Below are positions 7,326-44,390 of a DNA stretch of 64,000 nt, in pieces. The position numbers were made by a program, and so were the translations under genes. Within the stretch, counting starts at the first letter, position 1, and each line of letters opens with the position of its first letter. The stretch covers positions 1 to 64,000 of IMG/VR virus record IMGVR_UViG_3300009104_000006; one strand, written 5' to 3'. This DNA is from a virus. The notes below the pieces were generated by a model that made no database searches, was not told the DNA's origin, and was given only the letters and a program-made list of their open reading frames with translations.

Positions 7326-7440
7326 TTTCCGAAGTTTCCTTAGTATTGTCTAAACAAGGAGAATAATAGTGTAGTATAGAGAGGTAGTAGGACAATCGAA
7401 CTGTCCGATTGTATAGACAAGACAATAGAATCATCGGAAA
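7326..7440. repeat. 32-bp imperfect inverted repeat, candidate origin or protein-binding site
   Basis: 7326-7357 TTTCCGAAGTTTCCTTAGTATTGTCTAAACAA vs reverse complement of 7409-7440 TTTCCGATGATTCTATTGTCTTGTCTATACAA (25/32 identical); the same element recurs at 44313-44390. Confidence 0.7.
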
Positions 7441-7532
7441 ACTATGGTATCACACGCACAAAAACAGGATACCACGCTCATGTTGCTGACCCTCAATCCA
7501 AAACCTCGATGAAATCTTGACGAAAAAAGGCT

Positions 7533-7555
7533 TTGGTATTTAAACGAAGATAGTA
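7533..7555 (+). promoter_or_regulatory. Conserved 23-bp motif, copy 2
   Basis: Exact copy heading the run of small early genes. Confidence 0.8.
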
Positions 7556-7566
7556 TAGTGGAATTG

Positions 7567-7698
7567 ATGCTGAATAGTATTACTGAACAAAGAATGGAGT
7601 TGCCCTACCCTTGCACTTGTGCAACAGTAGGGATAGTGAAAGCCAAGTATAGAGGAATGGTTCTATGCACACACTGTAAGATACGGAGGGATGAATGA
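7567..7698 (+). CDS. Small Cys-rich hypothetical protein
   Basis: 43-aa ORF directly after motif copy 2; ATGA overlap with next ORF. Confidence 0.45.
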   Translation: MLNSITEQRMELPYPCTCATVGIVKAKYRGMVLCTHCKIRRDE

Positions 7699-7856
7699 TG
7701 CCCGCCATCGGTAAGATGAGGACACGCTGGCACATCACCTGCTTGTGTGAGCCCACCTACACCAACCAAATGAGGAAGGACAAGGTGCTACACCGCATAG
7801 ATATGCACATCGAAACGTGTCCTGTCTATACTTGGATAATGGAGGGGCGACCATGA
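7695..7856 (+). CDS. Small hypothetical protein
   Basis: 53-aa ORF with ATGA overlaps at both ends. Confidence 0.5.
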   Translation: MMPAIGKMRTRWHITCLCEPTYTNQMRKDKVLHRIDMHIETCPVYTWIMEGRP

Positions 7857-8164
7857 ACAAAGATGAAAATAGGAACACCCCTTATCACAAACTTGAGTGG
7901 ATTCACTTCGCAATTCAAGAGGCTATGAATGGAAACATAGAGGAACTCGACCGAGCACTCCCTCTCGTTGAGGACTTAAGGGAATACTCCATTCAAACAC
8001 GACTCAAAGCAAACGCACCACTACAACTCGCGGAAGTCAATCGGTTGCGTGAATTGTTAAGTGAAACAGAATACCGATTGGAGATAGCCGAAGATGTATT
8101 GGGTCGCTCGGATTGGAATACTATTTACCGTGAGATTATTGACGAGGATGGTGGAGAAGAATGA
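7853..8164 (+). CDS. Hypothetical protein with APLxLAEVxRLR module
   Basis: ATG 7853 overlaps upstream stop; shares NAPLQLAEVNRLRE with the 14.4-15.7 kb paralogs; ends GGEE. Confidence 0.7.
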   Translation: MNKDENRNTPYHKLEWIHFAIQEAMNGNIEELDRALPLVEDLREYSIQTRLKANAPLQLAEVNRLRELLSETEYRLEIAEDVLGRSDWNTIYREIIDEDGGEE

Positions 8165-8403
8165 ACGAAGACGAACACAAAAAGTTAGATGCTTTGATTG
8201 ACGCACACTTCAAGGTGGTGGATATAGATTCAGCCATCCTTGATTATGATAACCATTGGACTTTTGAGGAATACAAAGACATGGTGATGCACGCCGATTG
8301 GCTCATCGATTTATCAAGTGGAAGGACATACCTATTATCTCGCAGATGGGAAGACGACATTCAAGCACGACTACAAAAAATAAAGGAGAGTGAGGAGGAA
8401 TGA
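8161..8403 (+). CDS. Hypothetical protein
   Basis: ATGA-coupled, ends EEE. Confidence 0.65.
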   Translation: MNEDEHKKLDALIDAHFKVVDIDSAILDYDNHWTFEEYKDMVMHADWLIDLSSGRTYLLSRRWEDDIQARLQKIKESEEE

Positions 8404-8636
8404 GCGAGGACAAGCGCCATCCTCCATACACTATGCTCACCATTCGTGAGGTCATAGACACGATGCGTCTTCTCATAGAGAAAGAGGACTGTGAATTAGA
8501 TACGCCCATCGTGTGGTATCACTTAGCAGATGATTGCTTGACCGCTATGACACATGAGTGTTGTCATGTATTTCATGAGGATGAGTCATGGGTGGAACTG
8601 ACTCTCCATAACCCACATGGAGGCGAGGAAGAATGA
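8400..8636 (+). CDS. Hypothetical protein
   Basis: ATGA-coupled, ends GGEEE. Confidence 0.65.
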   Translation: MSEDKRHPPYTMLTIREVIDTMRLLIEKEDCELDTPIVWYHLADDCLTAMTHECCHVFHEDESWVELTLHNPHGGEEE

Positions 8637-8923
8637 GTATGATGAATGAAACAGATGAACACAACAAATGGAAGCATGGATATTGGAGATTGAAGAAAGA
8701 GAACAGCACGCTTAGGCTTAGGCTGGAGGTAGCCACGACGCGCATTGATGAATACAAAGAAGAACATGAGAGAGAAGTCATAGAGTTATGCGAGGAAATA
8801 GATGGGCTACGAAGGCAAGTGATAGAGGCAAGGGCAGGCGCAAGGATGGTTATGCACTTGACTCGTGAAGGCACACTCACTCCTGAAGATGGCGAGTGGC
8901 TGATTGATGAGGTGTATGTATGA
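8633..8923 (+). CDS. Hypothetical coiled-coil protein
   Basis: ATGA-coupled ORF with heptad-like middle. Confidence 0.65.
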   Translation: MSMMNETDEHNKWKHGYWRLKKENSTLRLRLEVATTRIDEYKEEHEREVIELCEEIDGLRRQVIEARAGARMVMHLTREGTLTPEDGEWLIDEVYV

Positions 8924-9096
8924 GCGATTGCAGAACTGAGAGAGTGAGTATCACAGACCACCATTGGGAGATGAGTGATATGTTTTGGGATGAGCCATAC
9001 GAACAGTTCCGAATAACGATTACGTGTAGTAAATGTGGGCGCTCAGGATGGGGCTGGGTTGATTTGCCTGCGATGATAGGAGGCGAGGAAGAATGA
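8920..9096 (+). CDS. Small CxxC hypothetical protein
   Basis: 58 aa, below the ORF-track cutoff; ATGA overlaps; ends GGEEE. Confidence 0.6.
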   Translation: MSDCRTERVSITDHHWEMSDMFWDEPYEQFRITITCSKCGRSGWGWVDLPAMIGGEEE

Positions 9097-9398
9097 GCAG
9101 CCACACTGACCCCGAAGTGATAGGAACGATTTGGTTTGACGATGCTTCGTCTTACCCACAGGCCTTGTCATTCATCGAAGAAGTATCTGAATTACTATGG
9201 GGTGCTAACGATGATGGAACAAGAGAACCTTACTCGATAGAAGAAAGCATTGAAAGGATGAAGGAATATACTCTCAAGTCATACGCTTGGGATTTGTTAG
9301 AGGAACACTTCTTTGTTGCTGATTGGGATATGGATAACGACACGGAAGAAAAGTATGAGATGCGCGAACTGATGAACCGACTGATGGGAGGCGAGTGA
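9093..9398 (+). CDS. Hypothetical acidic protein
   Basis: ATGA-coupled ORF. Confidence 0.65.
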   Translation: MSSHTDPEVIGTIWFDDASSYPQALSFIEEVSELLWGANDDGTREPYSIEESIERMKEYTLKSYAWDLLEEHFFVADWDMDNDTEEKYEMRELMNRLMGGE

Positions 9399-12071
9399 AT
9401 GATTACACCAAACAAAGACGACATGATGAGGATGGTAAGGGCGTTCGTGTCCATTCATCACGAAGTGAATAGCATTCACATCAAAGACGACATTGGACCT
9501 AACGCACCGGATGCTCCCTTCTTCAAGCGAGTGGCTGCTAAGGATGAGATGGATGAGGAAGACTACATCGAGATGAGCCAACGCTTCCGCAAATACATCG
9601 GCACTCAATTACCTGAGATTATGGAGATAGCGGGCTACGCACCTACTACTGATTGGGGTAAAGCATTAGATGGACTACATCAGATAGGTGAGGAAGCGAA
9701 AGAGAAGAGGCTTGAGCGTGAGAAGATACAACGAGAGTATGCAAAGAAATTGAGCAAGGGTGAGCAGAAGGTGAATAGTTATGTGGATGACCTCATTACC
9801 CAGAAGGGTTGCGAGTCATACTTCACACCTCTATCCGATAGCGAACTGAAGTCCTTGAAGAATGAACTCTTAGACATAGGTATAGATGTAGCGTCAGTCA
9901 ATGAGTTAGTGGATGGTGCTAACGAGAGTGGGTTGAGTAAGTTAGAATACTTCAAGTCGCAGTTCTCTCTCGACGTGGAGGAATACGAAGAAGTATGGTA
10001 TAGCAAGAACGACTACCAACAAAGATACCCACGTAAGAGTAAGAGATTGAAACTTGTATGGAAGGGGCGCAACACCAAGTTATACTATGACCTCAAGACG
10101 GCAGTGCCTTTCCCTTCGTTTAAGTATCAAAACTATACCATGTCTTGCTCGCTCGATAGCATGGTTATCGAGAAGGTATCTTCTATACTATCCAAGCATG
10201 GCTACGACACAAGCAAACTCGATGTTGTCGGTGCATCAATCAAGACTACTGAACCTAAGACTAACAGTAGTGGGTATGCAGTGCGTTTGAAGGGCGATGT
10301 TTTGTTCCTCAAACTACCTTACAACGATACTACGTGTAGGAATGTAGTCAAAGGACTCAACGGGCGTAAGTGGATTCCCGATGCTAAACAATGGACTGTT
10401 CCAATAAGCGAGGCTAATATCTTCATCAAGAAACTCAAAGAGGCAAGTGAATGGGATGATAACCCCGCCTCCTTACTTACTGAATTGGAAGGGATAGATG
10501 AACTGAATGATTACCTAAAGGGTAAGGCTGAACGCATAGCAATCAGTGGTGCAGCCACGCTCACAGATGATAAGGTAGTCAAGGAGATGGAGAGTAGGCT
10601 GGCTAAGATATTTCCAGACGGTCGCACACTCTATCCATTCCAATACGCAGGCGTGCGCTTTGCTGAGTTAGCACCTAACAAGTCGTGTCTAATTGGAGAT
10701 GACATGGGTGTAGGTAAGACAATTCAAGCACTCGCTTATGCTGCACTGCATGAGGAACTATGGCCTGTGCTTGTAGTATGCCCTGCGAATGTGAAATACA
10801 ATTGGCTCAAGGAGATACAGACTTGGCTTCCACACGTAGGTGTTCAAGCAGTGAAGACAGGAAAGGAAGACATAGAATGTGAAACATTCACCATCATTAA
10901 CTACGACTTGGCGAAGCGACAACAGGATAATCTTCATGCACTCGGAGCGAAACTAATCATCTTCGATGAATCTCACTACCTCAAGAACTCAAAGGCACAA
11001 AGAACACAGGCTTGCGTAGCATTAGCAGGAGAGGCTGACTCGGTGTTGTGTCTAAGCGGCACAGCCATTACCAACAGGCCTGTTGAACTATTCACTACGC
11101 TGGAAATGATTAGACCTGCTGAATACAAAGGGAACTTCTTTCAGTATGCAAAGAGATACTGTGGTGCTGAACAAAATAGATGGGGATGGGATTTCACAGG
11201 AGCATCTAACATCGAAGAACTACATGAGAAACTACGTGATTGTATGATTCGCAGACTCAAGAAGGAAGTGTTGGATGAACTACCAGATAAGGTGCGTCAG
11301 TTTATTCCCGTCGTTCCTAATCAGAAAGAGATGGCGGCATACAAGCGAGCACATAGAACATGGATGACTGACTACGCTCACTACAAAGCAGAAGGGAGAA
11401 TCCCTCTTGGCTTCGTTCTCAATATGCTGACTGACTTACGCCACCATGCGGGAACGCTCAAGGTAGGAGCGACCATTGATTGGGTGGCTGACTACAAGGA
11501 ACAGAATGAAGACAAACCAATCATCATATTCTATCATCACAAAGATGTAGGGGCTGGCTTGTTAGACATGATGACTAACGATAAGAGATACAACCACAAG
11601 AGATGGAGGGTAATAGCAGGCGGCACACCATCAATCAAGCGACAACAATATGTTGAACAGTTCCAAGCAGGTATGTTAGATGGATTACTTTGCTCCACGA
11701 TAGCAGCAAAGGAAGGACTTACTCTTACTGCCGCAGACACAGTAGTGTTCATCGAGCGCGAGTGGGTGCCCGGATGGGAAGAGCAAGCCGAAGATAGAAT
11801 CAACAGGATAGGACAGGACAACGACACAGTGTGGGCGATTTACTTATCGGTCGTAGGAACGATAGACGAAAAGTTCGACAGGATAGTGGAGGAAAAGAGG
11901 CGCATAACTTCCGCCGTTCTCGATGGTGGAGATGTAGGAGAAGATAGAGCAGGGATTGCGATTGCCCTGCTCAAAGCGATGGTCGATGCCGGAGAAATAC
12001 CTGCCGATATGCTGAAGCATATGGGTAGCAAACCAAAGGCACACGATAACAAGGAGGAAGAAGAAGAATGA
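9399..12071 (+). CDS. SNF2/SWI2-family helicase (SMARCAL1/HARP-like)
   Basis: GDDMGVGKTIQAL, IIFDESHYLKN, LSGTAITNRP, QAEDRINRIGQ; HARP-like segment RKWIPDAKQWTVP. Confidence 0.92.
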   Translation: MITPNKDDMMRMVRAFVSIHHEVNSIHIKDDIGPNAPDAPFFKRVAAKDEMDEEDYIEMSQRFRKYIGTQLPEIMEIAGYAPTTDWGKALDGLHQIGEEAKEKRLEREKIQREYAKKLSKGEQKVNSYVDDLITQKGCESYFTPLSDSELKSLKNELLDIGIDVASVNELVDGANESGLSKLEYFKSQFSLDVEEYEEVWYSKNDYQQRYPRKSKRLKLVWKGRNTKLYYDLKTAVPFPSFKYQNYTMSCSLDSMVIEKVSSILSKHGYDTSKLDVVGASIKTTEPKTNSSGYAVRLKGDVLFLKLPYNDTTCRNVVKGLNGRKWIPDAKQWTVPISEANIFIKKLKEASEWDDNPASLLTELEGIDELNDYLKGKAERIAISGAATLTDDKVVKEMESRLAKIFPDGRTLYPFQYAGVRFAELAPNKSCLIGDDMGVGKTIQALAYAALHEELWPVLVVCPANVKYNWLKEIQTWLPHVGVQAVKTGKEDIECETFTIINYDLAKRQQDNLHALGAKLIIFDESHYLKNSKAQRTQACVALAGEADSVLCLSGTAITNRPVELFTTLEMIRPAEYKGNFFQYAKRYCGAEQNRWGWDFTGASNIEELHEKLRDCMIRRLKKEVLDELPDKVRQFIPVVPNQKEMAAYKRAHRTWMTDYAHYKAEGRIPLGFVLNMLTDLRHHAGTLKVGATIDWVADYKEQNEDKPIIIFYHHKDVGAGLLDMMTNDKRYNHKRWRVIAGGTPSIKRQQYVEQFQAGMLDGLLCSTIAAKEGLTLTAADTVVFIEREWVPGWEEQAEDRINRIGQDNDTVWAIYLSVVGTIDEKFDRIVEEKRRITSAVLDGGDVGEDRAGIAIALLKAMVDAGEIPADMLKHMGSKPKAHDNKEEEEE

Positions 12072-12322
12072 GTAATGAAATTACAAGAATGAATGAATGG
12101 AAAATAGTATGCTGCGAGTGTAAGGCAGAAGATAGCATAATGTCAGACGAGAGAATCTATGCGACCTACCGAGTGAATGCTTGTGCTACTGATGAAATAG
12201 ACTATGACAGCGCAAGCGAGAAGATATACACCTCAACGACTGAGGGCTACTTCTGTGAAGAATGTCAGGAGAACTTCAGCCATGATGAGGTATTAGATAT
12301 GATTAGAAAGGTGAGTGAATGA
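12068..12322 (+). CDS. Zn-ribbon protein
   Basis: CCECK and CEEC pairs. Confidence 0.65.
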   Translation: MSNEITRMNEWKIVCCECKAEDSIMSDERIYATYRVNACATDEIDYDSASEKIYTSTTEGYFCEECQENFSHDEVLDMIRKVSE

Positions 12323-12648
12323 TTAACACAAATGAAGAAATGAATGTGCCTAAGACATGGGCAATAGATGTGTATGCTATGTGGCGTATGCTTGACCGAG
12401 ATGAGTGGCTTGCCGATAGGGTTGCCGATACCATACAAGACATTGATGAGGTGCTTACTGCAAGACAAATCATCAATGTATTGTTTGAAAGGAACAGGAA
12501 CTTAGCCGAGATGACTCTCGACTATATGTCTGACCTACATGCCGATGCATCAGGCTCTTGGGATGATGATGGAAAGGATAACAACATGATACTACTTTCT
12601 TGGGATGCCTACTACGAACTATACCCTGAAGAAAAGGTGAGTGAATAA
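12319..12648 (+). CDS. Hypothetical protein
   Basis: ATGA-coupled ORF ending KVSE like the preceding gene. Confidence 0.65.
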   Translation: MINTNEEMNVPKTWAIDVYAMWRMLDRDEWLADRVADTIQDIDEVLTARQIINVLFERNRNLAEMTLDYMSDLHADASGSWDDDGKDNNMILLSWDAYYELYPEEKVSE

Positions 12649-12649
12649 T

Positions 12650-13780
12650 ATGAGCAGCAATACAGGAACATGGTATAAGAGAAGTAGCACAGGTAAGATG
12701 GTTGAATGGTCGGGGTGGTCGCAAGGCGACACCTACTACGTCAAGAGTGGGCAAGTCGAAGGGAAGAAGACTACTACTGCTGGTGTAGTATGCACAGGCA
12801 AACAGGGGCGCAGTGATAGCGAGCAAGCGGAGTTCCAATTGAATGCTAAACTCAACAAGAAGAAAGATGACGGGTATCTTAACGACTACGATAAAGCCTT
12901 GACTCATGTAGTAATGCTACCAATGCTGGCTCACTCATACAAGAAGAGAAGCCACAACATCTCCTTCCCTTGCATAGTGCAAAGGAAGTTCGATGGAGTG
13001 CGGTGCTTCGCCATGCCGGATGGTAGGCTGCTCTCTCGTAAGGGCAAAGAGTTCCCTCATCTCAATCACCTTAGACACATACACATACACGTGCCGAAGA
13101 TTAACAATAACCCAATAGTGTTTGACGGTGAGTTATACTCAGACCACATGACCTTTCAAGAGTTAGTCGGATTAGTCAAGAGAGAGGCACTGAAGGCTGG
13201 CGATAAAGAGAGGATGAAACTAATCAAACTACGAGTGTATGATTGTTATGATACGGAGAACATCGACACCCCCTTCAAGGGTCGTGCTACTTTGATTCAA
13301 TGGATGCTATCTCGAAATTATATTGGAACTAATGTGTTGCGAACCAGAACAGCCATGCCGAAGGGTTGGGAGGCAGTGGAGAACTTCACTGCTAACAATG
13401 AGGATGACATATACAGGTTGCAGAAACAGTTTATCGAAGAAGGCTACGAGGGTGCTATGGTTAGGAATCTTCACGGCGCGTATGCGCTGGGTAAGAGGTC
13501 AGCCAATCTTCAGAAGGTCAAGACCTTCCTCGATGGTGAGTATAAGATAGTAGGATTCACCGAAGGTGAGGGTGGAGAAACAGGCTGCGTGATATGGAAG
13601 TGCAGCACTGCGAGCCATACCTTCAACGTTAGACCGAAAGGCACACGTGAGCAAAGAAGAGTATGGTTCAACAATGGTAATTCATACATCAATAAGATGC
13701 TTACGGTTAAATATCAAGAATTAACTGATGACGGCATCCCCCGCTTCCCTGTGGGGATAGCAGTGAGGAACTACGAATGA
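12650..13780 (+). CDS. lig: ATP-dependent DNA ligase (compact viral type)
   Basis: QRKFDGVRC (motif I), FDGELY, VYDC, GYEGAMVR, LQKVK, GIPRFPV; AGGTGA SD before ATG 12650. Confidence 0.93.
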   Translation: MSSNTGTWYKRSSTGKMVEWSGWSQGDTYYVKSGQVEGKKTTTAGVVCTGKQGRSDSEQAEFQLNAKLNKKKDDGYLNDYDKALTHVVMLPMLAHSYKKRSHNISFPCIVQRKFDGVRCFAMPDGRLLSRKGKEFPHLNHLRHIHIHVPKINNNPIVFDGELYSDHMTFQELVGLVKREALKAGDKERMKLIKLRVYDCYDTENIDTPFKGRATLIQWMLSRNYIGTNVLRTRTAMPKGWEAVENFTANNEDDIYRLQKQFIEEGYEGAMVRNLHGAYALGKRSANLQKVKTFLDGEYKIVGFTEGEGGETGCVIWKCSTASHTFNVRPKGTREQRRVWFNNGNSYINKMLTVKYQELTDDGIPRFPVGIAVRNYE

Positions 13781-14224
13781 GAGAACTATGCGACTGCTGG
13801 CCTACTGAATGGCATCAAGAGGTATATGCTGATGGTGCTAACAAGTGTAAGCACTGCGGTTTGCTCATGCCTAAGTTTGCGAGTGTGAATTGATGATGCA
13901 GTGTAGTGTGGATGGTTGTTATCGTTGGGCTAATACGCTCACAAGACTGTGCTACTACCACTTAACTTGGGGAGGCGAAGAAGAATGATGGCTGAGATTA
14001 TACTCACCCTTGTTGCTATCGTTTTCACGTGGTTCTTCGCCTATACTTTTCACTTCCTTTACACTAATAGTGTGAGTTTCATAAACATCGAAGAAGAATG
14101 ATACGCGCCTACAATTGATAGTAGTCTGTTGCGTTGTTCATATACTCTCGCAATCGTATATGCTGATGTATGTATTCGCGCATGACATTTGATGATAGTC
14201 GTTTTTTTTGGTGTTGAAGAACCT

Positions 14225-14247
14225 TTGGTATTTAAACGAAGATAGTA
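14225..14247 (+). promoter_or_regulatory. Conserved 23-bp motif, copy 3
   Basis: Exact copy, preceded by a T8 run at 14202-14209 (likely terminator). Confidence 0.8.
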
Positions 14248-14266
14248 ATAGGAGAATGAGAACAAT

Positions 14267-14443
14267 ATGAAAATAGGTAAATGGATTAACTTCGCAAGGT
14301 GGAGTGATAGAGCAAACTGCATAGGCAAGGGGCGCATACGTAATTGCGAAGTGCAAGATGATGCTCTAATGATTGATATGACGCTCGATGGTGTGCGCTA
14401 CATCGGCACGCTATACCAATACAAGGAGGATGAAGAAGAATGA
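14267..14443 (+). CDS. Small hypothetical protein
   Basis: 58 aa MKIGKW...KEDEEE; ATGA overlap with next gene. Confidence 0.6.
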   Translation: MKIGKWINFARWSDRANCIGKGRIRNCEVQDDALMIDMTLDGVRYIGTLYQYKEDEEE

Positions 14444-14757
14444 TTGATACACACAAATACGAAGGACACACGGAAGGACTGTGGGAATACAATACCGACG
14501 ATGATGGTTGGACACTTGCGGCTATCCATGAACGGAACGACCCTGACCGAGATGAGTTCATGGTGCTGATGACAAAACCGAATGGCGACCCTTACCTCAC
14601 AATGAATCCTGACCTCGCACTCATAGCAGACGCACCACTACTCCTTGAAGAAGTCAAGGACTTACAGAAGAAATTAGACAACCTGCGTGAGTATTGTCAT
14701 GCAGAAGGTTATGACATTTTCAATTGGGAAGTAAAGAACATTGAGGTGATTGAATGA
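14440..14757 (+). CDS. MIDTDKY-family paralog 1
   Basis: MIDTHKYEGHTEGLW...IADAPLLLEEVK. Confidence 0.7.
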   Translation: MIDTHKYEGHTEGLWEYNTDDDGWTLAAIHERNDPDRDEFMVLMTKPNGDPYLTMNPDLALIADAPLLLEEVKDLQKKLDNLREYCHAEGYDIFNWEVKNIEVIE

Positions 14758-14936
14758 TTGACACAGACAAATACAAGGAACTAAGAGAAGAAATAGAAAT
14801 GACTTTTCAGATTTACCAAGAGGATAAAGAGGAACTATTGAGAACAAACGGTGAAGAAGTTTGGGGTTGGATTCAAGCACTTGATTATGTCTTATATCAG
14901 ATGGATTTAGCAGAAAAGGAAGGTGAAGAGGAATGA
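14754..14936 (+). CDS. MIDTDKY-family paralog 2
   Basis: MIDTDKY start, GEEE end. Confidence 0.65.
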   Translation: MIDTDKYKELREEIEMTFQIYQEDKEELLRTNGEEVWGWIQALDYVLYQMDLAEKEGEEE

Positions 14937-15463
14937 TTGACACAGACAAATACCATAAGGCGAAACTCACAGAAGGGCCGTGGAAATACAAACGAGAAGA
15001 ATTGGAAGGAGATGGAAATTACCCTCGTGCTGATTTCAGGGCATACATTGTTGCCGGTCAAGATAGAATTGCTAAGATGATAACCCACACATACTACGAT
15101 GCACAACTCATGGCAGACGCACCACTACTACTCGCAGAAGTCGAGCGGTTGCGTCATCTATGTGATACATTATTCATCTATGCACATAACATTGAAACCG
15201 GACAATCCACCATCGAGAAATCCAATGGAGAGCCTCTAAGCACAATAGATTTTGAGAAAGATATGACTTGGGTGAATTGGGTGAATCAGCCCAAAATAAG
15301 CAACATCAAAATCGGGGGAATACCCCACCTAAAGATTGTCGATGATTCTATCCATTCAGACGGTGAGGCGGATTATGTCTTAGCGACTGAGTGTAAAGCA
15401 GGTCATTTGGTTGGGGAAATAGGATATGAGGATTGTCCTAATTGTGGTGGTGAAGAAGAATGA
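14933..15463 (+). CDS. MIDTDKY-family paralog 3
   Basis: MIDTDKY...TEGPW...MADAPLLLAEVERLR...CPNCGGEEE. Confidence 0.7.
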   Translation: MIDTDKYHKAKLTEGPWKYKREELEGDGNYPRADFRAYIVAGQDRIAKMITHTYYDAQLMADAPLLLAEVERLRHLCDTLFIYAHNIETGQSTIEKSNGEPLSTIDFEKDMTWVNWVNQPKISNIKIGGIPHLKIVDDSIHSDGEADYVLATECKAGHLVGEIGYEDCPNCGGEEE

Positions 15464-15750
15464 TTGACACAGACAAATACGAAGGACACATAGCAAGCGA
15501 AGGACAGACTTGGGTTTGGTCTAAGTGGATGCTAAAGAACGCTGAAACGATTGACCAACATGAGGCTACCTCCGCACTATTGAATGACGCACCACTACTA
15601 CTCGCAGAAGTCAAGCGGTTGCGTGAAGTAATAGATACATCACTTGAGTATATCAAGCGACCCGATATTGATGATGACTCACACACATTGAGTGTTGTGA
15701 AGAACACATTGAGTGTTGTGAAGAAGATATTGGAAGGTGTTGAGGAATGA
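15460..15750 (+). CDS. MIDTDKY-family paralog 4
   Basis: MIDTDKYEGH...NDAPLLLAEVKRLRE; internal 21-bp tandem duplication at 15683-15724. Confidence 0.7.
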   Translation: MIDTDKYEGHIASEGQTWVWSKWMLKNAETIDQHEATSALLNDAPLLLAEVKRLREVIDTSLEYIKRPDIDDDSHTLSVVKNTLSVVKKILEGVEE

Positions 15751-35422: not shown

Positions 35423-35692
35423 ATGACAACAAAAGACATGACTAAGGATGAATTGAAGAAAGAATTGACCAAGATTAAGACGGAGTTAAATGACACCATC
35501 ACTCGGTATAACGAACTTGCTGCGCAAGCCACCCTAATGGAGAAAGAGCATTCTCGTAGGTTGGCTTACCTACGCTCGTTTGAGCGGTTCGCTAACACGA
35601 TTGACCAAACGATGAACCAATTGAAGACAGACATAGGAGAACTGAACCGAATGTTCTCAGTGGATGAAAGCGACACGGATGGTGGTGAGTGA
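35423..35692 (+). CDS. Small coiled-coil protein
   Basis: Heptad-rich 89 aa with GGAG SD. Confidence 0.65.
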   Translation: MTTKDMTKDELKKELTKIKTELNDTITRYNELAAQATLMEKEHSRRLAYLRSFERFANTIDQTMNQLKTDIGELNRMFSVDESDTDGGE

Positions 35693-36674: not shown

Positions 36675-36678
36675 TTGA

Positions 36679-36999
36679 ATGAGCAAAGTGGAAGACGAAG
36701 TGTGCGCAATCATACAAGCAAGAGCGAAGAAGGTGCAAGCCACCGACAAATACGCTGGCGCTACAATGGAGCGCGATGACCTCACGCATGATGAGTGGTT
36801 GGAGCATCTGCAACACGAACTCATGGATGCGGTCATCTATATTCAGCGACTACGAACGAGAGAGCAAACGCTCGCATCAAAACTGTCTGAGTATTGTAGT
36901 GAAAGACGACTGACGAGGTCGGGTAGCACTACTCCTAAACTCGATGCGCTTCTTGAAGAATATCATGGGGTGAACGCAGATGGCGCAGATAACGCTTGA
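36679..36999 (+). CDS. MazG-like all-alpha NTP pyrophosphohydrolase
   Basis: KYAGATMERDDL..EWLEHLQHELMDAVIY. Confidence 0.55.
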   Translation: MSKVEDEVCAIIQARAKKVQATDKYAGATMERDDLTHDEWLEHLQHELMDAVIYIQRLRTREQTLASKLSEYCSERRLTRSGSTTPKLDALLEEYHGVNADGADNA

Positions 37000-37759
37000 T
37001 AGCAAGGAGTGGCTTGCCCACTTAGGTCAATTCAGCGACGTGATTAGTGATTTAGTAATCAACGTCTTTGAAACGCCAAACGCTATCGGTTATAGCGCAG
37101 GCTATCAGACCTTCTTCCTCAATGTATCTCGCGCCTACCCTGACGCTAAAGCAAAGGCAGGCCCACTTACTTTCTCAGACCTCACTAAAGCCTGTGCCTT
37201 CTTGAAGAAGTGTAGTGGAGATGTAACGATAAAGCAGGTGAAGAATGGAAACACGCTATACTTGTCAAGCGGCTCGTTCAAACTGTCGCTTCCTGTATCG
37301 GATAGCAAAAGCCAGCAATTAGTCAAGACCTACTCCAAACTCGTGAAGGAGGCTAAGGGGAACAAGTGGAAGACGTTTGGCGCCGATACCTACACAGTGC
37401 ATGGGAGAACGAAGATGAGCGAGATACTCAAACTCGCTTCGTTGAAGAACATCGTTACTAAATATGGGGCAGATTATAGTGTTACAATGGACATTGAGAA
37501 CGAAGAGATTTCTGCATCTGCGGGTAAGACTCACGATGCCAAGATATTTGCATCAAGCACAGTCACTGATGTAACTCTTGAGAAGAAAGGTATCAAGACT
37601 GTGAAGTCTAACTTCGGTCCATGGTTGCTCCCTTGCCTTGGCTTAGTGGATAGCGGCACTACGTGTCGTTTTCACTTTGGTGATGCGAGTGGGCTTGTGA
37701 TAGAACAGACCGAAACGGACTTGAAGAGACTACTGATAATCATAGACCAGCAGGAGTGA
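36980..37759 (+). CDS. Sliding clamp (PCNA-like)
   Basis: 259 aa, two-domain alpha/beta pattern, lies between clamp loader and PolB; sequence divergent. Confidence 0.6.
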   Translation: MAQITLDSKEWLAHLGQFSDVISDLVINVFETPNAIGYSAGYQTFFLNVSRAYPDAKAKAGPLTFSDLTKACAFLKKCSGDVTIKQVKNGNTLYLSSGSFKLSLPVSDSKSQQLVKTYSKLVKEAKGNKWKTFGADTYTVHGRTKMSEILKLASLKNIVTKYGADYSVTMDIENEEISASAGKTHDAKIFASSTVTDVTLEKKGIKTVKSNFGPWLLPCLGLVDSGTTCRFHFGDASGLVIEQTETDLKRLLIIIDQQE

Positions 37760-37860
37760 GCCAGCATGAGTAAGGAAATCGGACGTTGTGGTAAGTGCCA
37801 CAAGATTGGGCCTTTGTGGTCTAACGAAAATCAGATACTATTGTGTAGGAAGTGCGCTCA

Positions 37861-40254
37861 ATGATAATTGACTATTACTATCCCGATGACGAGTGGGAAG
37901 GCGTTGGTTATCCACACGTTTACTACCGATATAGGGGAGCAGATGGGGAAATAATCGAACACACGATAAATCCCAACGAAAACTCCGACATTGATGACCC
38001 GCTTTGGATTCCCCCACATTGTTGGGTGGCGGAGAACACCCATCCGAAGAAATTGTCTCGTTTGACTGCACGCTATCCGGGCGTTAAGGTGCGCTCGGAC
38101 ATTAAGGCGAAAGGGATAGATAAAGCATCATTGATACGTCTCGACGTGCCTAATCCAATACACCTTTACGACATTAAGAGTGAGATTCAGACTTATGAGG
38201 CAGATATGCCTTACACAGACCAATTGATTATTCATGCTTATCCCGACAACAAGAACATACCGGACTTTCATCCGAGAATTTGGTATTTCGATATGGAATG
38301 GCAACCCGAAGGGTGTCCACATGAAGGCGCAATTACCATGATTTCGATTGACGACACTATGGGAAATCGACCATTGGTATTCGCTTGGAAAGAAAAGGAA
38401 GATGGTTGCACCATAGACCACATAGAAAGAGAAGGAGGATATGATAGATACCTCTATGGAAGCGAACAGGAAATGCTCGACGCTTTTCTTAAGCACTTGA
38501 ATAAGTGCAACCCCGACATTCTCATCGCGCACGCCATCTATTGGGCCGACTTGCCTAAACTCGTTGAGCGTTTAGGAAATAGAGCAGACAAACTCAGTCC
38601 ATTGGGGCAAACAGTAAGGCCACGCAAAAAGGATGGCTACCACGATAATGCTCAACCAATTTTAGGAAGGCTCGTTTACGACACTGCGCTCGCGTGGAAT
38701 ACAGGAAGCGGATTGGAGGCAGTTTGGCAGAAGAATGGACGTGGAACATTCAGAAACAAGAAACTCGCAACCATCGCAGAAGATTTAGAGTTAGCCAAAG
38801 AGTTAGGTGAGCAAGGAGAAAAGATGGATGCTGATGTATTTACATGGTGGGTTGAGAACTTTGATGAGTTCGTTGATTACTGTGTGCGCGATACTACACT
38901 ATTGAGGCATTGTGCTGAAAAGGTGAATGCGATACCTTACCATTTGGCTATGCAGAAAGAATGTGGAGTCGTCTTCAAAAGCACCTGCAACGTATCTCGT
39001 TTTGTAAGAGGGCGTATCTCTCGCCATACTGACATAAAGGCTCTCACCACTCACTACCACCAACGCGACCAATACGATGGCGCAGACGTGCCGGAAACTG
39101 TTGGTGGACGACACGAAGGAGTCGCCTGTATTGACTTCAAGTCCATGTATCCTCAGATTTGCGTGGATGCGAATCTATGCCCAACGACAAAACAGAAAAG
39201 TGGCGGTGAAGAAATCCGAAGCGTTGGAAACGGAACGCATTGGAGAAAAGAGGCATCGGGCATAGGCGTCATTCCAGCCATCATTTCGGGTATGCTTGAA
39301 CTGCGACAAGACTACAAGAAGAAAATGAAAGCAGCAAAGAGCGAAGACGAGAAACTCAAATGGGATTTATTGCAGACTGCCGTTAAAGTCGCAACCAACG
39401 CAATCTATGGCTATATGTCTCAGAAGAAAGTAAGTGGTGGATGGATAGACCCCGATGTGGGTCGCACCATCACCTACTATGGAAGAGAGTGCATCAACAC
39501 CCTTCTGCTGGAAAGTGAGAAGGCTGGTTATACGGCTCTCGCAGGCCACACCGATTCCGGTTATATTCAAATTCCATTTGATGAGATAGACGCTCACCTC
39601 AAGAGCCTCAACAAAATCATTAGAACTCGATACGAACTTCCCATGATGGAAATCGAGTTAGAAGCCTACTTTGACTATTGGCTAACTGCTGATGTGAAGA
39701 ATCAAAACTTCGGATTTATGATTTGGCCTCCCGAAAAGAAGGGGCAATTGAAAGTAACAGGATTTTCATACAAGGCTTCCAGCGTATCTCCACTCACAAA
39801 GACGATACAAGGGAAGATATTCGATTTAGTCGGAACAGGAGCAGATGAAGAAGAAGTTACGAAGGCGATTAGAAAAATATCACTTGACGTTCTTGCGGGA
39901 AATTGGACGTGGGATGCGCTTTCACCGTATGGAAAAATAGGCAAAGCAGAATACAAGAGAACGCCGCCTATGGCCGTGAGAGGGGCATACTACTACAATG
40001 ACCATATCAACCCTAAAAATCCCTTTAGGGTCGGAGAAAGCCCACAGTGGTGCTATGTGCTACAAACTCCCAAAGATATGCCCCCGACTCTTGTCGTTGG
40101 ATTTAGGGATGCGACAGAAGTCAAGGATTTCCAAATTGATTATGCCGTGTGTGTTCAGAAGTTTATCGAAAAGAAAATTGAGAACATATATCGGGTTTTG
40201 GATTGGGATATTGGAGAGGCAATTGGGAGACAAAAACCCAAGACGCATTGGTGA
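37861..40254 (+). CDS. polB: Family B DNA polymerase
   Basis: ExoI WYFDMEW, ExoIII YCVRD, DFKSMYP, KVATNAIYG, AGHTDS. Confidence 0.95.
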   Translation: MIIDYYYPDDEWEGVGYPHVYYRYRGADGEIIEHTINPNENSDIDDPLWIPPHCWVAENTHPKKLSRLTARYPGVKVRSDIKAKGIDKASLIRLDVPNPIHLYDIKSEIQTYEADMPYTDQLIIHAYPDNKNIPDFHPRIWYFDMEWQPEGCPHEGAITMISIDDTMGNRPLVFAWKEKEDGCTIDHIEREGGYDRYLYGSEQEMLDAFLKHLNKCNPDILIAHAIYWADLPKLVERLGNRADKLSPLGQTVRPRKKDGYHDNAQPILGRLVYDTALAWNTGSGLEAVWQKNGRGTFRNKKLATIAEDLELAKELGEQGEKMDADVFTWWVENFDEFVDYCVRDTTLLRHCAEKVNAIPYHLAMQKECGVVFKSTCNVSRFVRGRISRHTDIKALTTHYHQRDQYDGADVPETVGGRHEGVACIDFKSMYPQICVDANLCPTTKQKSGGEEIRSVGNGTHWRKEASGIGVIPAIISGMLELRQDYKKKMKAAKSEDEKLKWDLLQTAVKVATNAIYGYMSQKKVSGGWIDPDVGRTITYYGRECINTLLLESEKAGYTALAGHTDSGYIQIPFDEIDAHLKSLNKIIRTRYELPMMEIELEAYFDYWLTADVKNQNFGFMIWPPEKKGQLKVTGFSYKASSVSPLTKTIQGKIFDLVGTGADEEEVTKAIRKISLDVLAGNWTWDALSPYGKIGKAEYKRTPPMAVRGAYYYNDHINPKNPFRVGESPQWCYVLQTPKDMPPTLVVGFRDATEVKDFQIDYAVCVQKFIEKKIENIYRVLDWDIGEAIGRQKPKTHW

Positions 40255-40259
40255 TTGAA

Positions 40260-40391
40260 ATGAATGGTAAAGATATAGACAAGTGGTCTGAGATGCACGT
40301 GGGCAGCCTTGCTCTTACACGAACTATCGTAGGTTTCGTGAATGTAATCTTGAGCGTTATAGTAGTAGCGAAATTATTTGGGTGGATATGA
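40260..40391 (+). CDS. Small membrane protein
   Basis: 43 aa with a C-terminal hydrophobic helix. Confidence 0.5.
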   Translation: MNGKDIDKWSEMHVGSLALTRTIVGFVNVILSVIVVAKLFGWI

Positions 40392-40512
40392 TGTTGTCTC
40401 AATGCGTATGTGGATGGCATGGTATTACCACAACCTGTATGGTGAACGGAACGCCTACTTGTCCAAACTGTCGAAAACCATTCACCAATATGAGATGTGA
40501 GGGGTGTTCTGA

Positions 40513-41511
40513 ATGAAGTTTAATCCGAATGAAGAGGCTTTCTTTGAGCGGCGCACTGAAGCGCATACGCCGGAACTGCTTGAATCATACAACAGGTCGT
40601 GCTATAATTGGACACCCGACATGAAGGATATGATACTGAGGGCAAGTAAATCGTCTATCAATGACTATGATTGGTGTCCTCATCAATACAAACTCAAGAA
40701 TATCTATCGTCTCTCCGAACCGGAAAACGATGACATGATTCGTGGAACGAACGTGCATAGCATAGTCGAGTATTTCTGGGATAACGTAGGAGCAAAGATT
40801 CCCGAAGCCCTCGTGCTTATGAGAGAAGGAAAGAAGATGCTCGCAAAGGACTTACTGTGGCAGGTAATACCGACACCTCCGCTTCCATACCAATTTGGAG
40901 AAGAAGTAGTCATACGAAAGTGGTTTGATTGGCAGTGGGATAGATTTCTCATTACAGATGGAGAAAATTGGACACCCGTTGGAAACGAAATATCAGCACA
41001 CGGCGTCGTTATGGTGGAAGTGGATGGCGAAGAATATCCTGTCCATCTTCGAGGATTCATTGATACCATCTTCTCGGATGGAGAGGGCGGCTTCATACTG
41101 ATGGAACTTAAGACAGGTAAATGGCGAGAGAAGAAGACTGCCACTAAGATGAGAGTGGAAATGCAGATTTACAGAATGATGCTTGAAGAAGGAGAATACA
41201 CTGATTTTCTCCCTATCACACATTGGGCTTGGGAGTTCCCAAGAGGATATGTGAATGGCGGCGATAGGGCCGAATGGGAATTAGAAGAAACTGGAACACG
41301 AAAGACGCAATTCGCCCCTCGAACTGCGATGAGGAAATTACAGAACCTTGTGAAAGGACACCTATATGATTCATTTGAACCAAAAATACGAGAATGGAGA
41401 ACACCCAACGGAGAGACAATGACAAATTGCTCTTACTGTTCGTTTATGGAACTGTGTCCGGCTTGGGGAATGAATGAAGGAGAAAACGAATATGAGAATG
41501 AAGAAGAATGA
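40513..41511 (+). CDS. Cas4-like/RecB-family PD-(D/E)xK nuclease
   Basis: SKSS...WCP, RGTNVH, LRGFID, MELKTGK, MQIY, CSYCSFMELCP (four-Cys Fe-S pattern). Confidence 0.88.
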   Translation: MKFNPNEEAFFERRTEAHTPELLESYNRSCYNWTPDMKDMILRASKSSINDYDWCPHQYKLKNIYRLSEPENDDMIRGTNVHSIVEYFWDNVGAKIPEALVLMREGKKMLAKDLLWQVIPTPPLPYQFGEEVVIRKWFDWQWDRFLITDGENWTPVGNEISAHGVVMVEVDGEEYPVHLRGFIDTIFSDGEGGFILMELKTGKWREKKTATKMRVEMQIYRMMLEEGEYTDFLPITHWAWEFPRGYVNGGDRAEWELEETGTRKTQFAPRTAMRKLQNLVKGHLYDSFEPKIREWRTPNGETMTNCSYCSFMELCPAWGMNEGENEYENEEE

Positions 41512-41815
41512 ACTGAAAGAAAAAGTGAATAGAACGGCAGACATTTTGTCTGAGATGTTGAAAGGAGAAGATGAGAACATGGAAGTGAATGTAACTTACG
41601 GTATGTTGGGAACGGGAGATTTCAAGGCCCAATTAACCAAGCAGATGACGCTTGATTACTACACCGAAGAGAACGCAGAAGTTCCTTATTTTCACGTTCT
41701 TGACGTTGTGATAGACAAGCGCGCATTTACGTATACTGAGAAGAACTTGTTTCCCGAAGGGCCAGCGTCCTTAGCAGTAAAAATCCATCGAAGATACAAG
41801 GATATGGCTGAGTAA
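41492..41815 (+). CDS. Hypothetical protein with PIP-box-like QMTLDYY
   Basis: ORF in the replication operon. Confidence 0.6.
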   Translation: MRMKKNELKEKVNRTADILSEMLKGEDENMEVNVTYGMLGTGDFKAQLTKQMTLDYYTEENAEVPYFHVLDVVIDKRAFTYTEKNLFPEGPASLAVKIHRRYKDMAE

Positions 41816-41816
41816 T

Positions 41817-42920
41817 ATGGCGTTTGCGTCATTGATACGCGACTTCCCAAGAGAAGTCCTTGAAGTAAGTTCGAGCGGTAAGCACGGAGGGCGTTATATC
41901 GTCCGCGATTGGGAAGCGTTGGAAAAGTATTGGAGAGGGAAGAACGGGTCTGGTAATGCGTATCACACTGCATATGGGTATCGAAGCACCCAAGCGCCCA
42001 AGCACCATAGAGTCGAATACAATACTGCAATAGTCAGACACTTTGTAATGGACTTTGACTGCAAGGACTTCAAGAATGGAGGTGTTGATGTTGATTTCTC
42101 CTTCATGCAAGAACAAGTGCAACGCCTTCACAGACACCTATTGGACAATGACTACCAACACTACATCTTCTTTACAGGAGGTGGATTTCACATCTATATT
42201 CCTTTGTCTGAAGCATTCCTACCAATAGACGGATTGGAGGTAACAAGAATCAAAAGTGCCGGAAGAAGGCTAATGAAACGCTGGCATGATAACCTCAACC
42301 TCTCATGTAACGACCCTACTGTTGCATTCGACCTTGCGGGAATGATACGCATCCCTAACTCCTACAACGCAAAGAGAGGGTGTTGGGTTATACCGATTGA
42401 AAGTGATGAACTCATGTCCTTAGATTTCGAGACTATTTACGAAATAGCACAGGATTACAGACGTGGCTACATCGTTCAAGGAAGCAAACCACTCAAACTC
42501 ATTCTGCCTAAGAAGAATAATGCCTTTAGCAAGAAAGAGCGAAAGAATGTATCTGATTTACCCACAGTCTCGTTAGGCTCAATCAAGGTTCTGCCTTGTA
42601 TAGCCCAAGCGGCTCTTGGAGCAGGTAATCCAACACATAGAGCGAGATACCATCTCGCATCCTATCTCGCAGACAGGCTTCGTTGGTTCTTTCCGATTGA
42701 TAATGTGCCGAAAGAAGACTTGCCGAAACACGTCGAGCAGATTGTGCAGATATGCTCGGAGCAAGGATGGGTCGATTGGAACGAAAACATAACGAGAACC
42801 CAAGTCGAGAGCATAGTGTTCAAGGGTTATGCTCATGCACGTTGTGAAACTTTGATGCAAGAAGGCCTGTGTGCAGGTAAATGCAAGTATTACGATGGAA
42901 CTGCGGAGGATTTGCTATGA
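41817..42920 (+). CDS. Archaeo-eukaryotic primase, catalytic domain fused to a PriL-like Fe-S domain
   Basis: VMDFD, TGGGFHIY, MIRIPNSYN, then LPCI...H.AR...ARCETL..GLC.GKC. Confidence 0.88.
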   Translation: MAFASLIRDFPREVLEVSSSGKHGGRYIVRDWEALEKYWRGKNGSGNAYHTAYGYRSTQAPKHHRVEYNTAIVRHFVMDFDCKDFKNGGVDVDFSFMQEQVQRLHRHLLDNDYQHYIFFTGGGFHIYIPLSEAFLPIDGLEVTRIKSAGRRLMKRWHDNLNLSCNDPTVAFDLAGMIRIPNSYNAKRGCWVIPIESDELMSLDFETIYEIAQDYRRGYIVQGSKPLKLILPKKNNAFSKKERKNVSDLPTVSLGSIKVLPCIAQAALGAGNPTHRARYHLASYLADRLRWFFPIDNVPKEDLPKHVEQIVQICSEQGWVDWNENITRTQVESIVFKGYAHARCETLMQEGLCAGKCKYYDGTAEDLL

Positions 42921-43132
42921 GAGAGTGTAGCGAATGTGGCGCCAAGTTAAGCCATAGGAACCCCCAAAGAAAAGCGAATGGAAAATACTCATTCAGAAAA
43001 TTATGCCAGCCTTGTTTCAATAATCCAAAGGCCGAAGACCGTTGCATCGCCTTAACTGCGAAAGGGAAGAGGTGCAAACTTAGACGTCTTCCCGAATCAA
43101 AAAGGAATATGTGTGCGATGCACAGGAGGTGA
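42917..43132 (+). CDS. Small basic Zn-finger protein
   Basis: CSEC, CQPC, C.A.T.KG.RC...C.MH. Confidence 0.6.
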   Translation: MRECSECGAKLSHRNPQRKANGKYSFRKLCQPCFNNPKAEDRCIALTAKGKRCKLRRLPESKRNMCAMHRR

Positions 43133-43136
43133 ACAG

Positions 43137-43610
43137 ATGCAACCAATCAACGTATCTAATACGACTCTATCCACATACAAGGGGAGAAGACACCGTAAGT
43201 TCGACGCTAAACAAAAGAAGCGGCATGACTTTGGAAAAGCACAGTGTGTGATTTGTGATGAGGTATTTACCAAATATACACATAACACAAAAGTGTGTTC
43301 TAAAGAGTGTAGGAAGAAAAAGAAAACACGCAATAATCGCAAGTATAACGAAGAAAATCCTGAGAAGCAAAAAGCGTATGCACGCAAGTATCGTGAAAAG
43401 AATCGTGAGAAGATAAAAACGGAAGCACGCAAGTGGCGCGAAGAGAATCGTGAGAAAGAAGCGGCGAGAAGCCGCAAGTATCGCAAAGAGAATCGTGAGA
43501 AGACAAATGCGTATGGCCGCAAGTATTACGAAAAGAATCGTGAGAAGGTATTAGCGAGAGACCGCGCACGATATCACGCAAAGAAAAAACAAGAGGAAGT
43601 GAACAGATGA
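43137..43610 (+). CDS. Basic protein with Zn finger and five 15-aa repeats
   Basis: CVIC...CSKEC then RK(Y/W)xxxNxEK x5 at a 45-bp period. Confidence 0.65.
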   Translation: MQPINVSNTTLSTYKGRRHRKFDAKQKKRHDFGKAQCVICDEVFTKYTHNTKVCSKECRKKKKTRNNRKYNEENPEKQKAYARKYREKNREKIKTEARKWREENREKEAARSRKYRKENREKTNAYGRKYYEKNREKVLARDRARYHAKKKQEEVNR

Positions 43611-44287
43611 CTGACTTATTCATAGACACCAACGAGAGAGGCAGATTATGCGAATCCGTGATACGCAAGGCCGAAAGTGCAGGCTTGTGTGTTGAAAGAA
43701 AGACGCTTGTGGTTGGCGATTACCTGTTAGGCGCAGCGTGCATCGAAGCCAAATCGGTTAGCGACTTCCTCCATTCTTGCGACACCGGACACCTGTGGAA
43801 GCAATTGGATAACATGGATGCTAATTACGAACGCTTCTTCTTATTGATACACGGCAGTATATCAGCCTACGTCAAAATGAACAAGAAGCATTCATACAGC
43901 CGCATCCAAAGTAAGATGGTAGGACTCATAGCGCGCACTATGGCAGATTTTGACTGCCAAGTCTTGTTTACTCCAAACGTCAGTGAAGCCGCCTCATTCG
44001 TGGTGAAACTACACAACAAACTCCACAAGCCAGCGTCTCAACATGGCGCACAGGGAATACGTAGGGTCAGCACAAACGATGTGCGGAAGGACATACTTCT
44101 GTGCATACCCGGCATAGGCTCAGTCATGGCTGATAGATTACTCAAGGAATGTGGCTCTATTGAAGAGATGCTTTTCTTAGACTCACTCAAGAAGGTGAAA
44201 GGGTTGGGCGACAAGTCAGCGAAGAAAATCATCAAGGCATTAACCAGCGAATCTCCTGTTCACATCGAAAGGAAGGTGTTCAATTGA
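43607..44287 (+). CDS. ERCC4/XPF (Hef-like) endonuclease with HhH motifs
   Basis: IDTNE, GDY, IEAKSVSDF, IPGIG, VKGLG. Confidence 0.88.
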   Translation: MTDLFIDTNERGRLCESVIRKAESAGLCVERKTLVVGDYLLGAACIEAKSVSDFLHSCDTGHLWKQLDNMDANYERFFLLIHGSISAYVKMNKKHSYSRIQSKMVGLIARTMADFDCQVLFTPNVSEAASFVVKLHNKLHKPASQHGAQGIRRVSTNDVRKDILLCIPGIGSVMADRLLKECGSIEEMLFLDSLKKVKGLGDKSAKKIIKALTSESPVHIERKVFN

Positions 44288-44288
44288 T

Positions 44289-44311
44289 TTGGTATTTAAA
44301 CGAAGATAGTA
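44289..44311 (+). promoter_or_regulatory. Conserved 23-bp motif, copy 9
   Basis: Exact copy upstream of the MCM-like gene. Confidence 0.8.
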
Positions 44312-44312
44312 A

Positions 44313-44390
44313 TTCCGATTATTCCGAAACAATGTCTAAACAGGGAGAATTAAATACGAGTGTATAGACGGGACGAAGGAATACTCGGAC
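44313..44390. repeat. 30-bp inverted-repeat pair homologous to 7326-7440
   Basis: TTCCGATTATTCCGAAACAATGTCTAAACA (44313-44342) and TGTATAGACGGGACGAAGGAATACTCGGAC (44361-44390). Confidence 0.7.

Follow-up and report, generated by a model that had tools for sequence, protein, structure and literature searches.

An inverted-repeat element conserved at three gene boundaries of magroviruses is a candidate operator set

The DNA analyzed here (the window) comprises bases 1 to 64,000 of the 102,093-bp IMG/VR virus record IMGVR_UViG_3300009104_000006. It encodes a family-B DNA polymerase, an RFC-like clamp loader, an ATP-dependent ligase, and an SNF2 helicase, together with a PD-(D/E)XK nuclease, a primase-like protein, an ERCC4/HhH nuclease, and a thermosome, the same gene set that has been given for the magroviruses, uncultured head-tailed viruses of Marine Group II archaea (PMC5434244). 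Genes run leftward from ~5.3 kb, rightward from ~5.8 to 49 kb, and leftward again over the remainder of the record. Our subject is an element made of two inverted 30-nt half-sites, which is found in the window once in the divergent control region (site 1) and once ahead of the gene for an MCM-like helicase, P0001 (site 2). An earlier note on this DNA had proposed that the element serves as a replication origin at the first place and as an autoregulatory operator at the second.

Inverted pairs of a 30-nt half-site

The four half-sites lie exactly where the earlier note had placed them, and the spacers of 53 and 18 bp that it gave were confirmed by measurement. The consensus, TCCGAnnWTTCY-n7-YGTCTAWACA, matched just these four places in the window with three mismatches allowed (shuffled sequences lead one to expect 0.13 matches), and there are no further half-sites anywhere in the 102,093-bp record. 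As a test of uniqueness this is circular, because the pattern was built from the same four sites, and the independent support comes from conservation in relatives. Each half-site consists of an outer box, (K)TCCGA, a second box ~8 nt inward (WTTCY, in many cases TTCCGA once more), and GTCTAWACA as the inner box. The features are listed below; R1 is a sequence-only model of the half-site.

7327 to 7356, plus strand: site 1 left half-site, with boxes TCCGA, TTCC, and GTCTAAACA; matched by R1 at an E value of 2e-5
7357 to 7409, no strand: site 1 spacer, 53 bp, 40% GC, with a TATAGARGAGAG-like core
7410 to 7439, minus strand: site 1 right half-site; matched by R1 at an E value of 1.7e-6
7535 to 7555, plus strand: promoter-like 21-mer, copy 2, 95 bp downstream of site 1 and at the head of the rightward early operon
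44291 to 44311, plus strand: promoter-like 21-mer, copy 9, with TTTAAA at 44296 to 44301
44313 to 44342, plus strand: site 2 left half-site, matched by the consensus and by R1
44343 to 44360, no strand: site 2 spacer, 18 bp, 39% GC (genome, 45%)
44361 to 44390, minus strand: site 2 right half-site, ending 25 nt before the ATG
44416 to 45828, plus strand: P0001, 470 amino acids, MCM-fold AAA+ protein with Walker A (..TGKS) and Walker B (..DEGS) motifs

The promoter-like 21-mer, GGTATTTAAACGAAGATAGTA, has nine mismatch-free copies, all on the plus strand and ahead of operons. The element follows the helicase copy and none of the others, with a gap of 1 nt, in agreement with the description of the second pair as beginning right after that copy. 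We infer that the left half-site of site 2 covers the transcript start, which would be expected ~25 nt past the TATA-like box. Two further statements about the element held for this genome but not for its relatives. The octamer RGGAGAAT does follow both left half-sites here (as AGGAGAAT and GGGAGAAT) but is not kept elsewhere, its position being taken by AGGGGAAT in L075 and by TTAAGAAT in the relative G011 and the octamer being absent from the others. Similarly, the internal spacing of the half-sites is identical within this genome, but in an alignment the L082/L083 lineage has both arms 1 nt shorter.

By reading the sequence, we also recognized a decayed extra right half-site inside the site 1 spacer, at ~7372 to 7400. 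The first open reading frame (ORF) past copy 2 of the promoter-like motif (window positions 7596 to 7700) encodes a zinc-ribbon-like 34-amino-acid CxC...CxxC microprotein.

Conservation of the element in relatives

Among the findings that the earlier note had named as telling against its proposal, absence from relatives is the main one. Since the element is kept upstream of orthologous helicase genes in about ten magrovirus lineages, that objection falls away. Full inverted pairs lie upstream of P0001 orthologues in G001, G006, G002, G003, G011, G016, and L082/L083, and protein identity to P0001 in these relatives is 98 to 99% for G001/G006, 76% for L082/L083, and 73 to 74% for G011/G016. A 21-nt core form, GTCCGA-n6-GTCTATAC, is present as an inverted pair in the distant G019-G022 clade; a lone half-site is found upstream of the orthologues in L098-110 and L092-97, and no element was found upstream of those in L077/L080. 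When R1 was run over 79 orthologue loci (338 kb) with reporting at an E value of ≤10, all 39 matches fell within 150 nt upstream of the start of a P0001 orthologue. The association of the element with the 5′ region of the helicase gene is thus real, and the element is a conserved cis-element. A blastn search of a phage collection in distant mode, with both regions as the query, gave no match.

The promoter-like motifs themselves differ markedly among the pair-bearing lineages. G011, for example, has ten copies of a different promoter-like motif, and again the helicase copy alone is followed by the element. The pair lies downstream of the general promoter in the G000, G011, G016, and L082 lineages and upstream of it in G019 and G022.

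Site 1 is the least conserved of the sites. By alignment the pair is retained in G011, G016, and L160, with a spacer of 51 to 53 bp and a TATAGARGAGAG-like core. The boxes of the control-region pair are more degenerate in relatives; R1 misses site 1 in G016, and the degenerate copy in G005 has one clear arm. Over all pairs, spacers measure 17 to 21 bp (5 to 39% GC) or, in the control region, 51 to 55 bp (25 to 40% GC). A weak half-site match at 16.8 kb in G011 lies inside the RFC-like coding region and was taken as chance.

Several other observations were made on the leaders of P0001 orthologues and on the contigs that carry them. In L128, L134, L136, and L148, the inner-box sequence is repeated directly, two or three times (for example, GTTGTATAG-GTTGTATAG), and not present as an inverted pair, also between a promoter-like motif and the P0001 orthologue. 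A GACC...GGTC hairpin lies ~30 nt before the start of the orthologue in L078, L084, L092-L118, and L129-L146, and also at L032:1600-1650. It includes a Shine-Dalgarno-like GAGGTCA or GGGGTCA directly before the ATG, both of many P0001 orthologues and of the membrane-protein gene behind the third site described below, and may be a translational control or leader-stabilizing stem; it is missing from the site 2 leader of this genome. Contigs with magrovirus genes (P0009, P0031, and P0064; L155) are filed in public metagenome-assembled genomes labelled Phenylobacterium, Thorarchaeota, and Parvibaculum and are probably mis-binned viral contigs. The thermosome homologues that we found were all viral.

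A third site in the missing part of the genome

The picture of two sites falls short: a third site heads another operon in a part of the genome that this record lacks. Despite a CheckV rating of 100%, the record is incomplete; by mapping to the complete relative G011 (115,554 bp), ~15 kb is absent between the record end, which falls inside the large-terminase gene (TerL), and the record start. Contig L032, a close relative, overlaps the right end of the record with 97% nucleotide identity over 567 nt and extends 11 kb beyond it; the missing part is carried by L032:1-11345, and site 3 with it.

A half-site scan of IMG/VR found site 3 as inverted pairs with a spacer of 18 to 21 bp (5 to 17% GC), lying ~85 nt upstream of a gene for a small membrane protein (MKMTGLIL...) in G005, G011-G016, and L032-L039. 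This gene heads an operon in the long leftward block. Because the gene upstream of site 3 ends 3 to 12 nt before the left arm, the promoter of the operon would have to sit in the AT-rich spacer, which may hold a TATA box. In the distant clade (G019/G020/G022), site 3 is at the same place with the same 30-nt internal spacing.

The complete G011 genome has exactly three sites, at 5.9, 43.2, and 55.1 kb. In the genomes of the clade, site 1 lies 45 to 100 bp upstream of the first rightward early promoter and site 2 separates the gene of the ERCC4-type nuclease from that of the MCM-like helicase, and in divergent relatives the sites occur at the same three gene boundaries. We considered miniature inverted-repeat transposable elements and transposon terminal inverted repeats and rejected them, since they would be expected as mobile, nonsyntenic copies, whereas the copies seen are syntenic.

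The two arms share boxes rather than a stem

Inverted repeats may act as structure, and sites 2 and 3 possibly lie inside transcribed leaders. Folded as RNA, site 2 gives an interrupted hairpin (−22 kcal/mol, z score of −3.7), which is what an RNA or cruciform stem-loop serving as a leader structure, terminator, or processing site would call for; its pairing is, however, confined to the boxes. Over 11 pairs, arm-to-arm identity was 168/187 (90%) in the boxes and 54/141 (38%) at the other positions. That the boxes match between arms while the intervening positions do not indicates a protein site, not a stem. Differences between arms also go uncompensated (TCCGA versus TCCGG in L082/L083 and, in both pairs of this genome, G000, A versus T in the inner box), the 1-nt shortening in L082 and L083 is at the same place in both arms of the alignment, and lone half-sites retain the motif. 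An Rfam scan of the window, like a tRNA scan, gave no match. We therefore regard a stem-loop as scarcely credible; the element is almost certainly read as sequence, in duplex DNA by a protein.

The MCM-like helicase as a reader of the element

At the sequence level P0001 had no match in Pfam, PHROGs, or the PDB, and it was identified by fold search alone. The top Foldseek matches of its AlphaFold model (predicted local distance difference test score [pLDDT] of 85) were all MCM2-7 or SsoMCM (E value of 1e-10, probability of 1.0, template modeling score of ~0.5), so that calling it MCM-like was right at the fold level. It has no MCM N-terminal oligonucleotide-binding (OB) fold/zinc domain, ~50 helical residues preceding the P-loop at residues 72 to 76, and in the model its C terminus is winged-helix-like. 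Presumably, the MCM annotation in PMC5434244 refers to P0001.

The earlier note had the MCM-like protein or another viral initiator load head to head at one site and regulate its own gene at the other. In the version weighed here, P0001 itself would read the element through its C-terminal domain, loading at an origin at site 1 and repressing its own gene at site 2. The MCM fold with a winged-helix-like C terminus, the linkage of the element to the P0001 gene across lineages, and the position of site 2 over the expected transcript start are all in keeping with this. In twelve lineages that keep the boxes, however, no part of the protein is less conserved than the winged helix: 9 of its 78 positions (12%) are invariant, compared with 54% in the AAA+ core, and its recognition helix has 2 invariant positions of 15. 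The DNA boxes, by contrast, stay constant among these lineages. In addition, the proposal leaves the third site, ahead of an unrelated operon, unexplained, and the iterons of the control region (described below) differ from the half-site, unlike those of Rep-iteron systems. The winged-helix domains of MCM proteins are not known to recognize sequence. We consider self-recognition by the helicase very unlikely.

A tandem helix-turn-helix protein encoded behind site 3

The operon behind site 3 contains a gene for another candidate reader, 3.7 to 3.9 kb downstream of the site.

L032:5349-6065 (orthologues L162-L173): tandem helix-turn-helix (HTH) protein, 238 amino acids, with two CxxC...HTH...HxxxH modules followed by long coiled-coil helices

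The protein matched the Pfam family HTH_20 above the cutoff (E value of 1.6e-8), and its AlphaFold2 model shows two three-helix modules and then long helices. The gene was found in 18 of 24 relatives, including every record that is at least 90% complete except the present, truncated one; in the distant clade it again lies behind site 3, 4 kb downstream. Full-length intact copies are 62 to 80% identical, and the G032 copy, with an in-frame stop, is 33% identical. The predicted recognition helices are the most conserved parts (67 to 71% of positions invariant versus 37% for the whole protein). Given that constant DNA boxes need a constant reading surface, this protein is a better candidate reader than P0001. 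Two HTH modules per chain and pairing through the coiled coil would, if the model is right, explain the multibox, inverted layout of the element.

As well as a regulator, the same protein could be an origin binder or a small terminase. In the last case the sites would be pac-type or concatemer-pairing sites with a TerS-like reader. The HTH modules and long helices would suit such a protein, its gene is a core gene of the morphogenesis block lying 5 kb upstream of TerL, and the genomes of magroviruses have terminal redundancy (PMC5434244). However, the tandem-HTH gene does not directly adjoin TerL. A terminase reading of the genes around it was tried and rejected, the intervening 629-amino-acid ORF encoding a disordered basic protein and the neighboring 203- and 140-amino-acid ORFs being without annotation. 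PHROGs gave no terminase match, and three sites per genome, one of them fixed before a helicase gene, are unlike known pac sites. A packaging role thus strikes us as most improbable.

The control region and possible origins

Conservation of the control region extends leftward from site 1.

7117 to 7326, no strand: conserved noncoding block left of site 1, opening with the near-palindrome CCACCCATACGGTTGG and including GCACATACGCACATGAGGACAG

With site 1 it forms a conserved noncoding block of ~320 nt (window positions 7117 to 7439) that by alignment is common to G011, G016, and L160, and in which conservation ends directly after the right arm of site 1. Copies of the near-palindrome CCACCCATACGGTTGG at 5678 to 5693 and 7117 to 7132 bracket a unit of promoter, orphan gene, and terminator, and the motif is retained in G005, G011, and G016 in both positions or orientations.

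Iteron arrays occupy window positions 5330 to 5760 and 6920 to 7040, with ~12 copies of GCGGTATGC and 5 of CAGACCGCAG. At the same position of the control region, G011 has at least nine copies of AGCATTACGC (44575 to 45060; L066:4575-5060) and G005 at least six of CGCCAACGC (78596 to 78742; L073:18596-18742), so that the position is fixed and the unit changes from lineage to lineage. The arrays adjoin the fast-evolving, basic orphan gene (5875 to 6636), which had a tblastn match of 28% identity in G011, was undetectable in G005, and yielded no relatives in a search by peptide patterns. A lineage-specific unit at a fixed position beside a fast-evolving gene is the pattern typical of an origin or centromere with a cognate binder, and we regard the arrays as a candidate origin or centromere with a coevolving binder. 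As origin candidates they are stronger than site 1. The iterons share no sequence with the half-site boxes.

The iteron plasmids offer a parallel up to this point. In these plasmids, the direct iterons bound by Rep lie at the origin, and the promoter of Rep has an operator of inverted half-iterons that Rep binds as well. The magrovirus genomes likewise combine an inverted repeat at a replication-gene promoter with iteron arrays in a control region, but here GCGGTATGC and CAGACCGCAG are unrelated to the half-site.

Could the element nevertheless mark origins or helicase-loading sites, up to three per genome? Under this explanation the tandem-HTH protein, the MCM-like protein, or a host factor would bind the half-sites, the spacer would melt, and the MCM-like helicase would be loaded. 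The layout of polar, inverted half-sites around a short spacer that at site 3 is very AT rich (18 to 20 bp) is what such a site would require, and the size and six boxes of the element suit a large assembly. The element stays beside the helicase gene wherever the promoter is, even upstream of the general promoter in G019/G022, and site 1 lies at the cumulative GC-skew minimum at the end of the 320-nt block. A near-complete replisome is encoded (PMC5434244), and some other origin recognition would be needed in a virus whose genome encodes no Cdc6_C-type initiator; a search for PF09079 (Cdc6_C) in G000, G011, G016, G019, and G022 gave no match at an E value of ≤1.

Against this stand the 39% GC of the site 2 spacer in a genome of 45% GC and the length of the spacers, 17 to 21 bp being short for an unwinding element. 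GC skew, which the earlier note had put forward as a check, is no guide to an origin here, as it goes with the coding strand and its minimum at ~6 kb falls where the coding strand switches, so we discarded it as an origin marker. Site 1 is also the least conserved site, the iterons fit the logic of an origin better, and in some lineages site 2 is lost or reduced to a single half-site. The claim that site 1 is the origin is accordingly not borne out, and origins or loading sites in general we hold to be unlikely, though a possibility of some weight. That the sites are magrovirus origins at which a new tandem zinc-HTH, coiled-coil origin-binding protein recruits the N-terminally truncated MCM-like helicase is a narrower proposal, and a rather improbable one.

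Two families of origins resemble the element in layout. In herpes simplex virus 1 (HSV-1) oriS and oriL, sites for the origin-binding helicase UL9 are inverted around an 18-bp AT-rich center, and several copies lie in promoter-regulatory regions. These origins, and also site II of simian virus 40 large T antigen and the papillomavirus E1 sites, are alike in layout to the magrovirus element, which at site 3 has an AT-rich spacer of 18 to 20 bp. A further likeness is that the virus has a replisome of its own and that a helicase gene is close by. The differences are that the putative DNA-binding domain of the helicase is poorly conserved here, that the site 2 spacer is not AT rich, and that initiation is only proposed. 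Archaeal origins with Orc1/Cdc6 and paired origin recognition boxes (ORBs) around an unwinding element also have polar, inverted sites of ~30 bp next to a replication gene. In the magroviruses, however, that gene is MCM-like and not orc1/cdc6, the five genomes searched have no Cdc6_C domain, and the spacers seem far shorter than is usual for an unwinding element. The boxes of the half-site are presumably also distinct from the ORB dyad plus G-string.

A three-site operator set

Our tentative preference, to which we give a little less than an even chance, is that the 30-bp half-sites are docking sites of one conserved, virus-encoded, sequence-specific DNA-binding protein and that the three sites form an operator set. 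The sites would set three transcription units apart from others with identical promoters. At site 2 of this genome, a protein on the element would lie over the expected transcript start and so repress. The most likely reader would be the tandem CxxC-HTH protein, which would regulate its own operon via site 3; within a half-site, one monomer would contact the outer and the inner box with its two HTH modules, and the inverted arrangement of half-sites would arise from pairing through the coiled coil. The sites, their conservation and positions, the absence of stem complementarity, and the folds and conservation of the proteins are observed, whereas binding, the identity of the reader, promoters, transcript starts, and the direction of regulation belong to our interpretation.

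Several features speak in favor of regulation. Each of the three sites stands at the head of a transcription unit of its own, the candidate reader is encoded in one of these units, and just one of the nine (G000) or ten (G011) promoter-like motifs has the element in its leader, apparently over the expected start. Archaeal operators provide a precedent: dimeric HTH or winged-HTH regulators block the recruitment of TATA-binding protein and transcription factor B (TBP/TFB) or of RNA polymerase or activate from upstream. Archaeal and viral transcription-factor operators at promoters with a TATA box and TFB recognition element share the dyad, the apparent placement of site 2 (directly after a promoter-like motif and over the expected start), the small number of sites per genome at operon heads, and a candidate regulator gene behind one of them. 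The magrovirus element differs in its 30-bp, three-box half-site and total length of 78 to 113 bp, far larger than usual, and in a position relative to the promoter that flips between clades; its regulator, moreover, is only a candidate.

A number of points weigh against an operator set. A simple operator would be expected to be smaller than this element of 78 to 113 bp and six boxes, and the site 3 spacers (5 to 17% GC) are as AT rich as origin unwinding elements. The shifting position of the promoter fits a promoter-independent role equally well, and the promoter role of the 21-mer is one that we infer. As to the reader, the confidence of the tandem-HTH model is modest (pLDDT of 65), a fold search of the PDB with it gave no match at an E value of ≤0.001, and the gene sits among morphogenesis genes, so that its product could be a small terminase or a virion protein. 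A Pfam search of 20 small early proteins for a regulator gave none above the cutoffs, and other readers therefore cannot be ranked. In a protein atlas, the tandem-HTH protein matched only its own unnamed viral clusters.

Significance for magroviruses

Inverted-repeat docking sites at operon heads or origins are a known kind of element. For magroviruses this instance is undescribed in the papers that were text searched, the founding paper (PMC5434244) and a 2025 survey; in neither did the searches turn up promoters, operators, or origins. What is unusual about the instance is a half-site of 30 bp with three boxes and a candidate reader of the tandem zinc-HTH type.

Magroviruses, which like their hosts are uncultured, rank with the most abundant viruses that infect ocean archaea. 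A conserved three-site element, a named candidate reader, and a 78-bp target together open these viruses to concrete biochemical work: with two recombinant proteins and a single DNA fragment, one would learn how the expression of the helicase is timed or how replication is started. If the sites were origins, an MCM-type helicase would be brought to DNA without Orc1/Cdc6, and with the tandem-HTH protein as the binder, this would amount to Orc1/Cdc6-independent MCM loading in an archaeal virus, with a herpesvirus-like layout.

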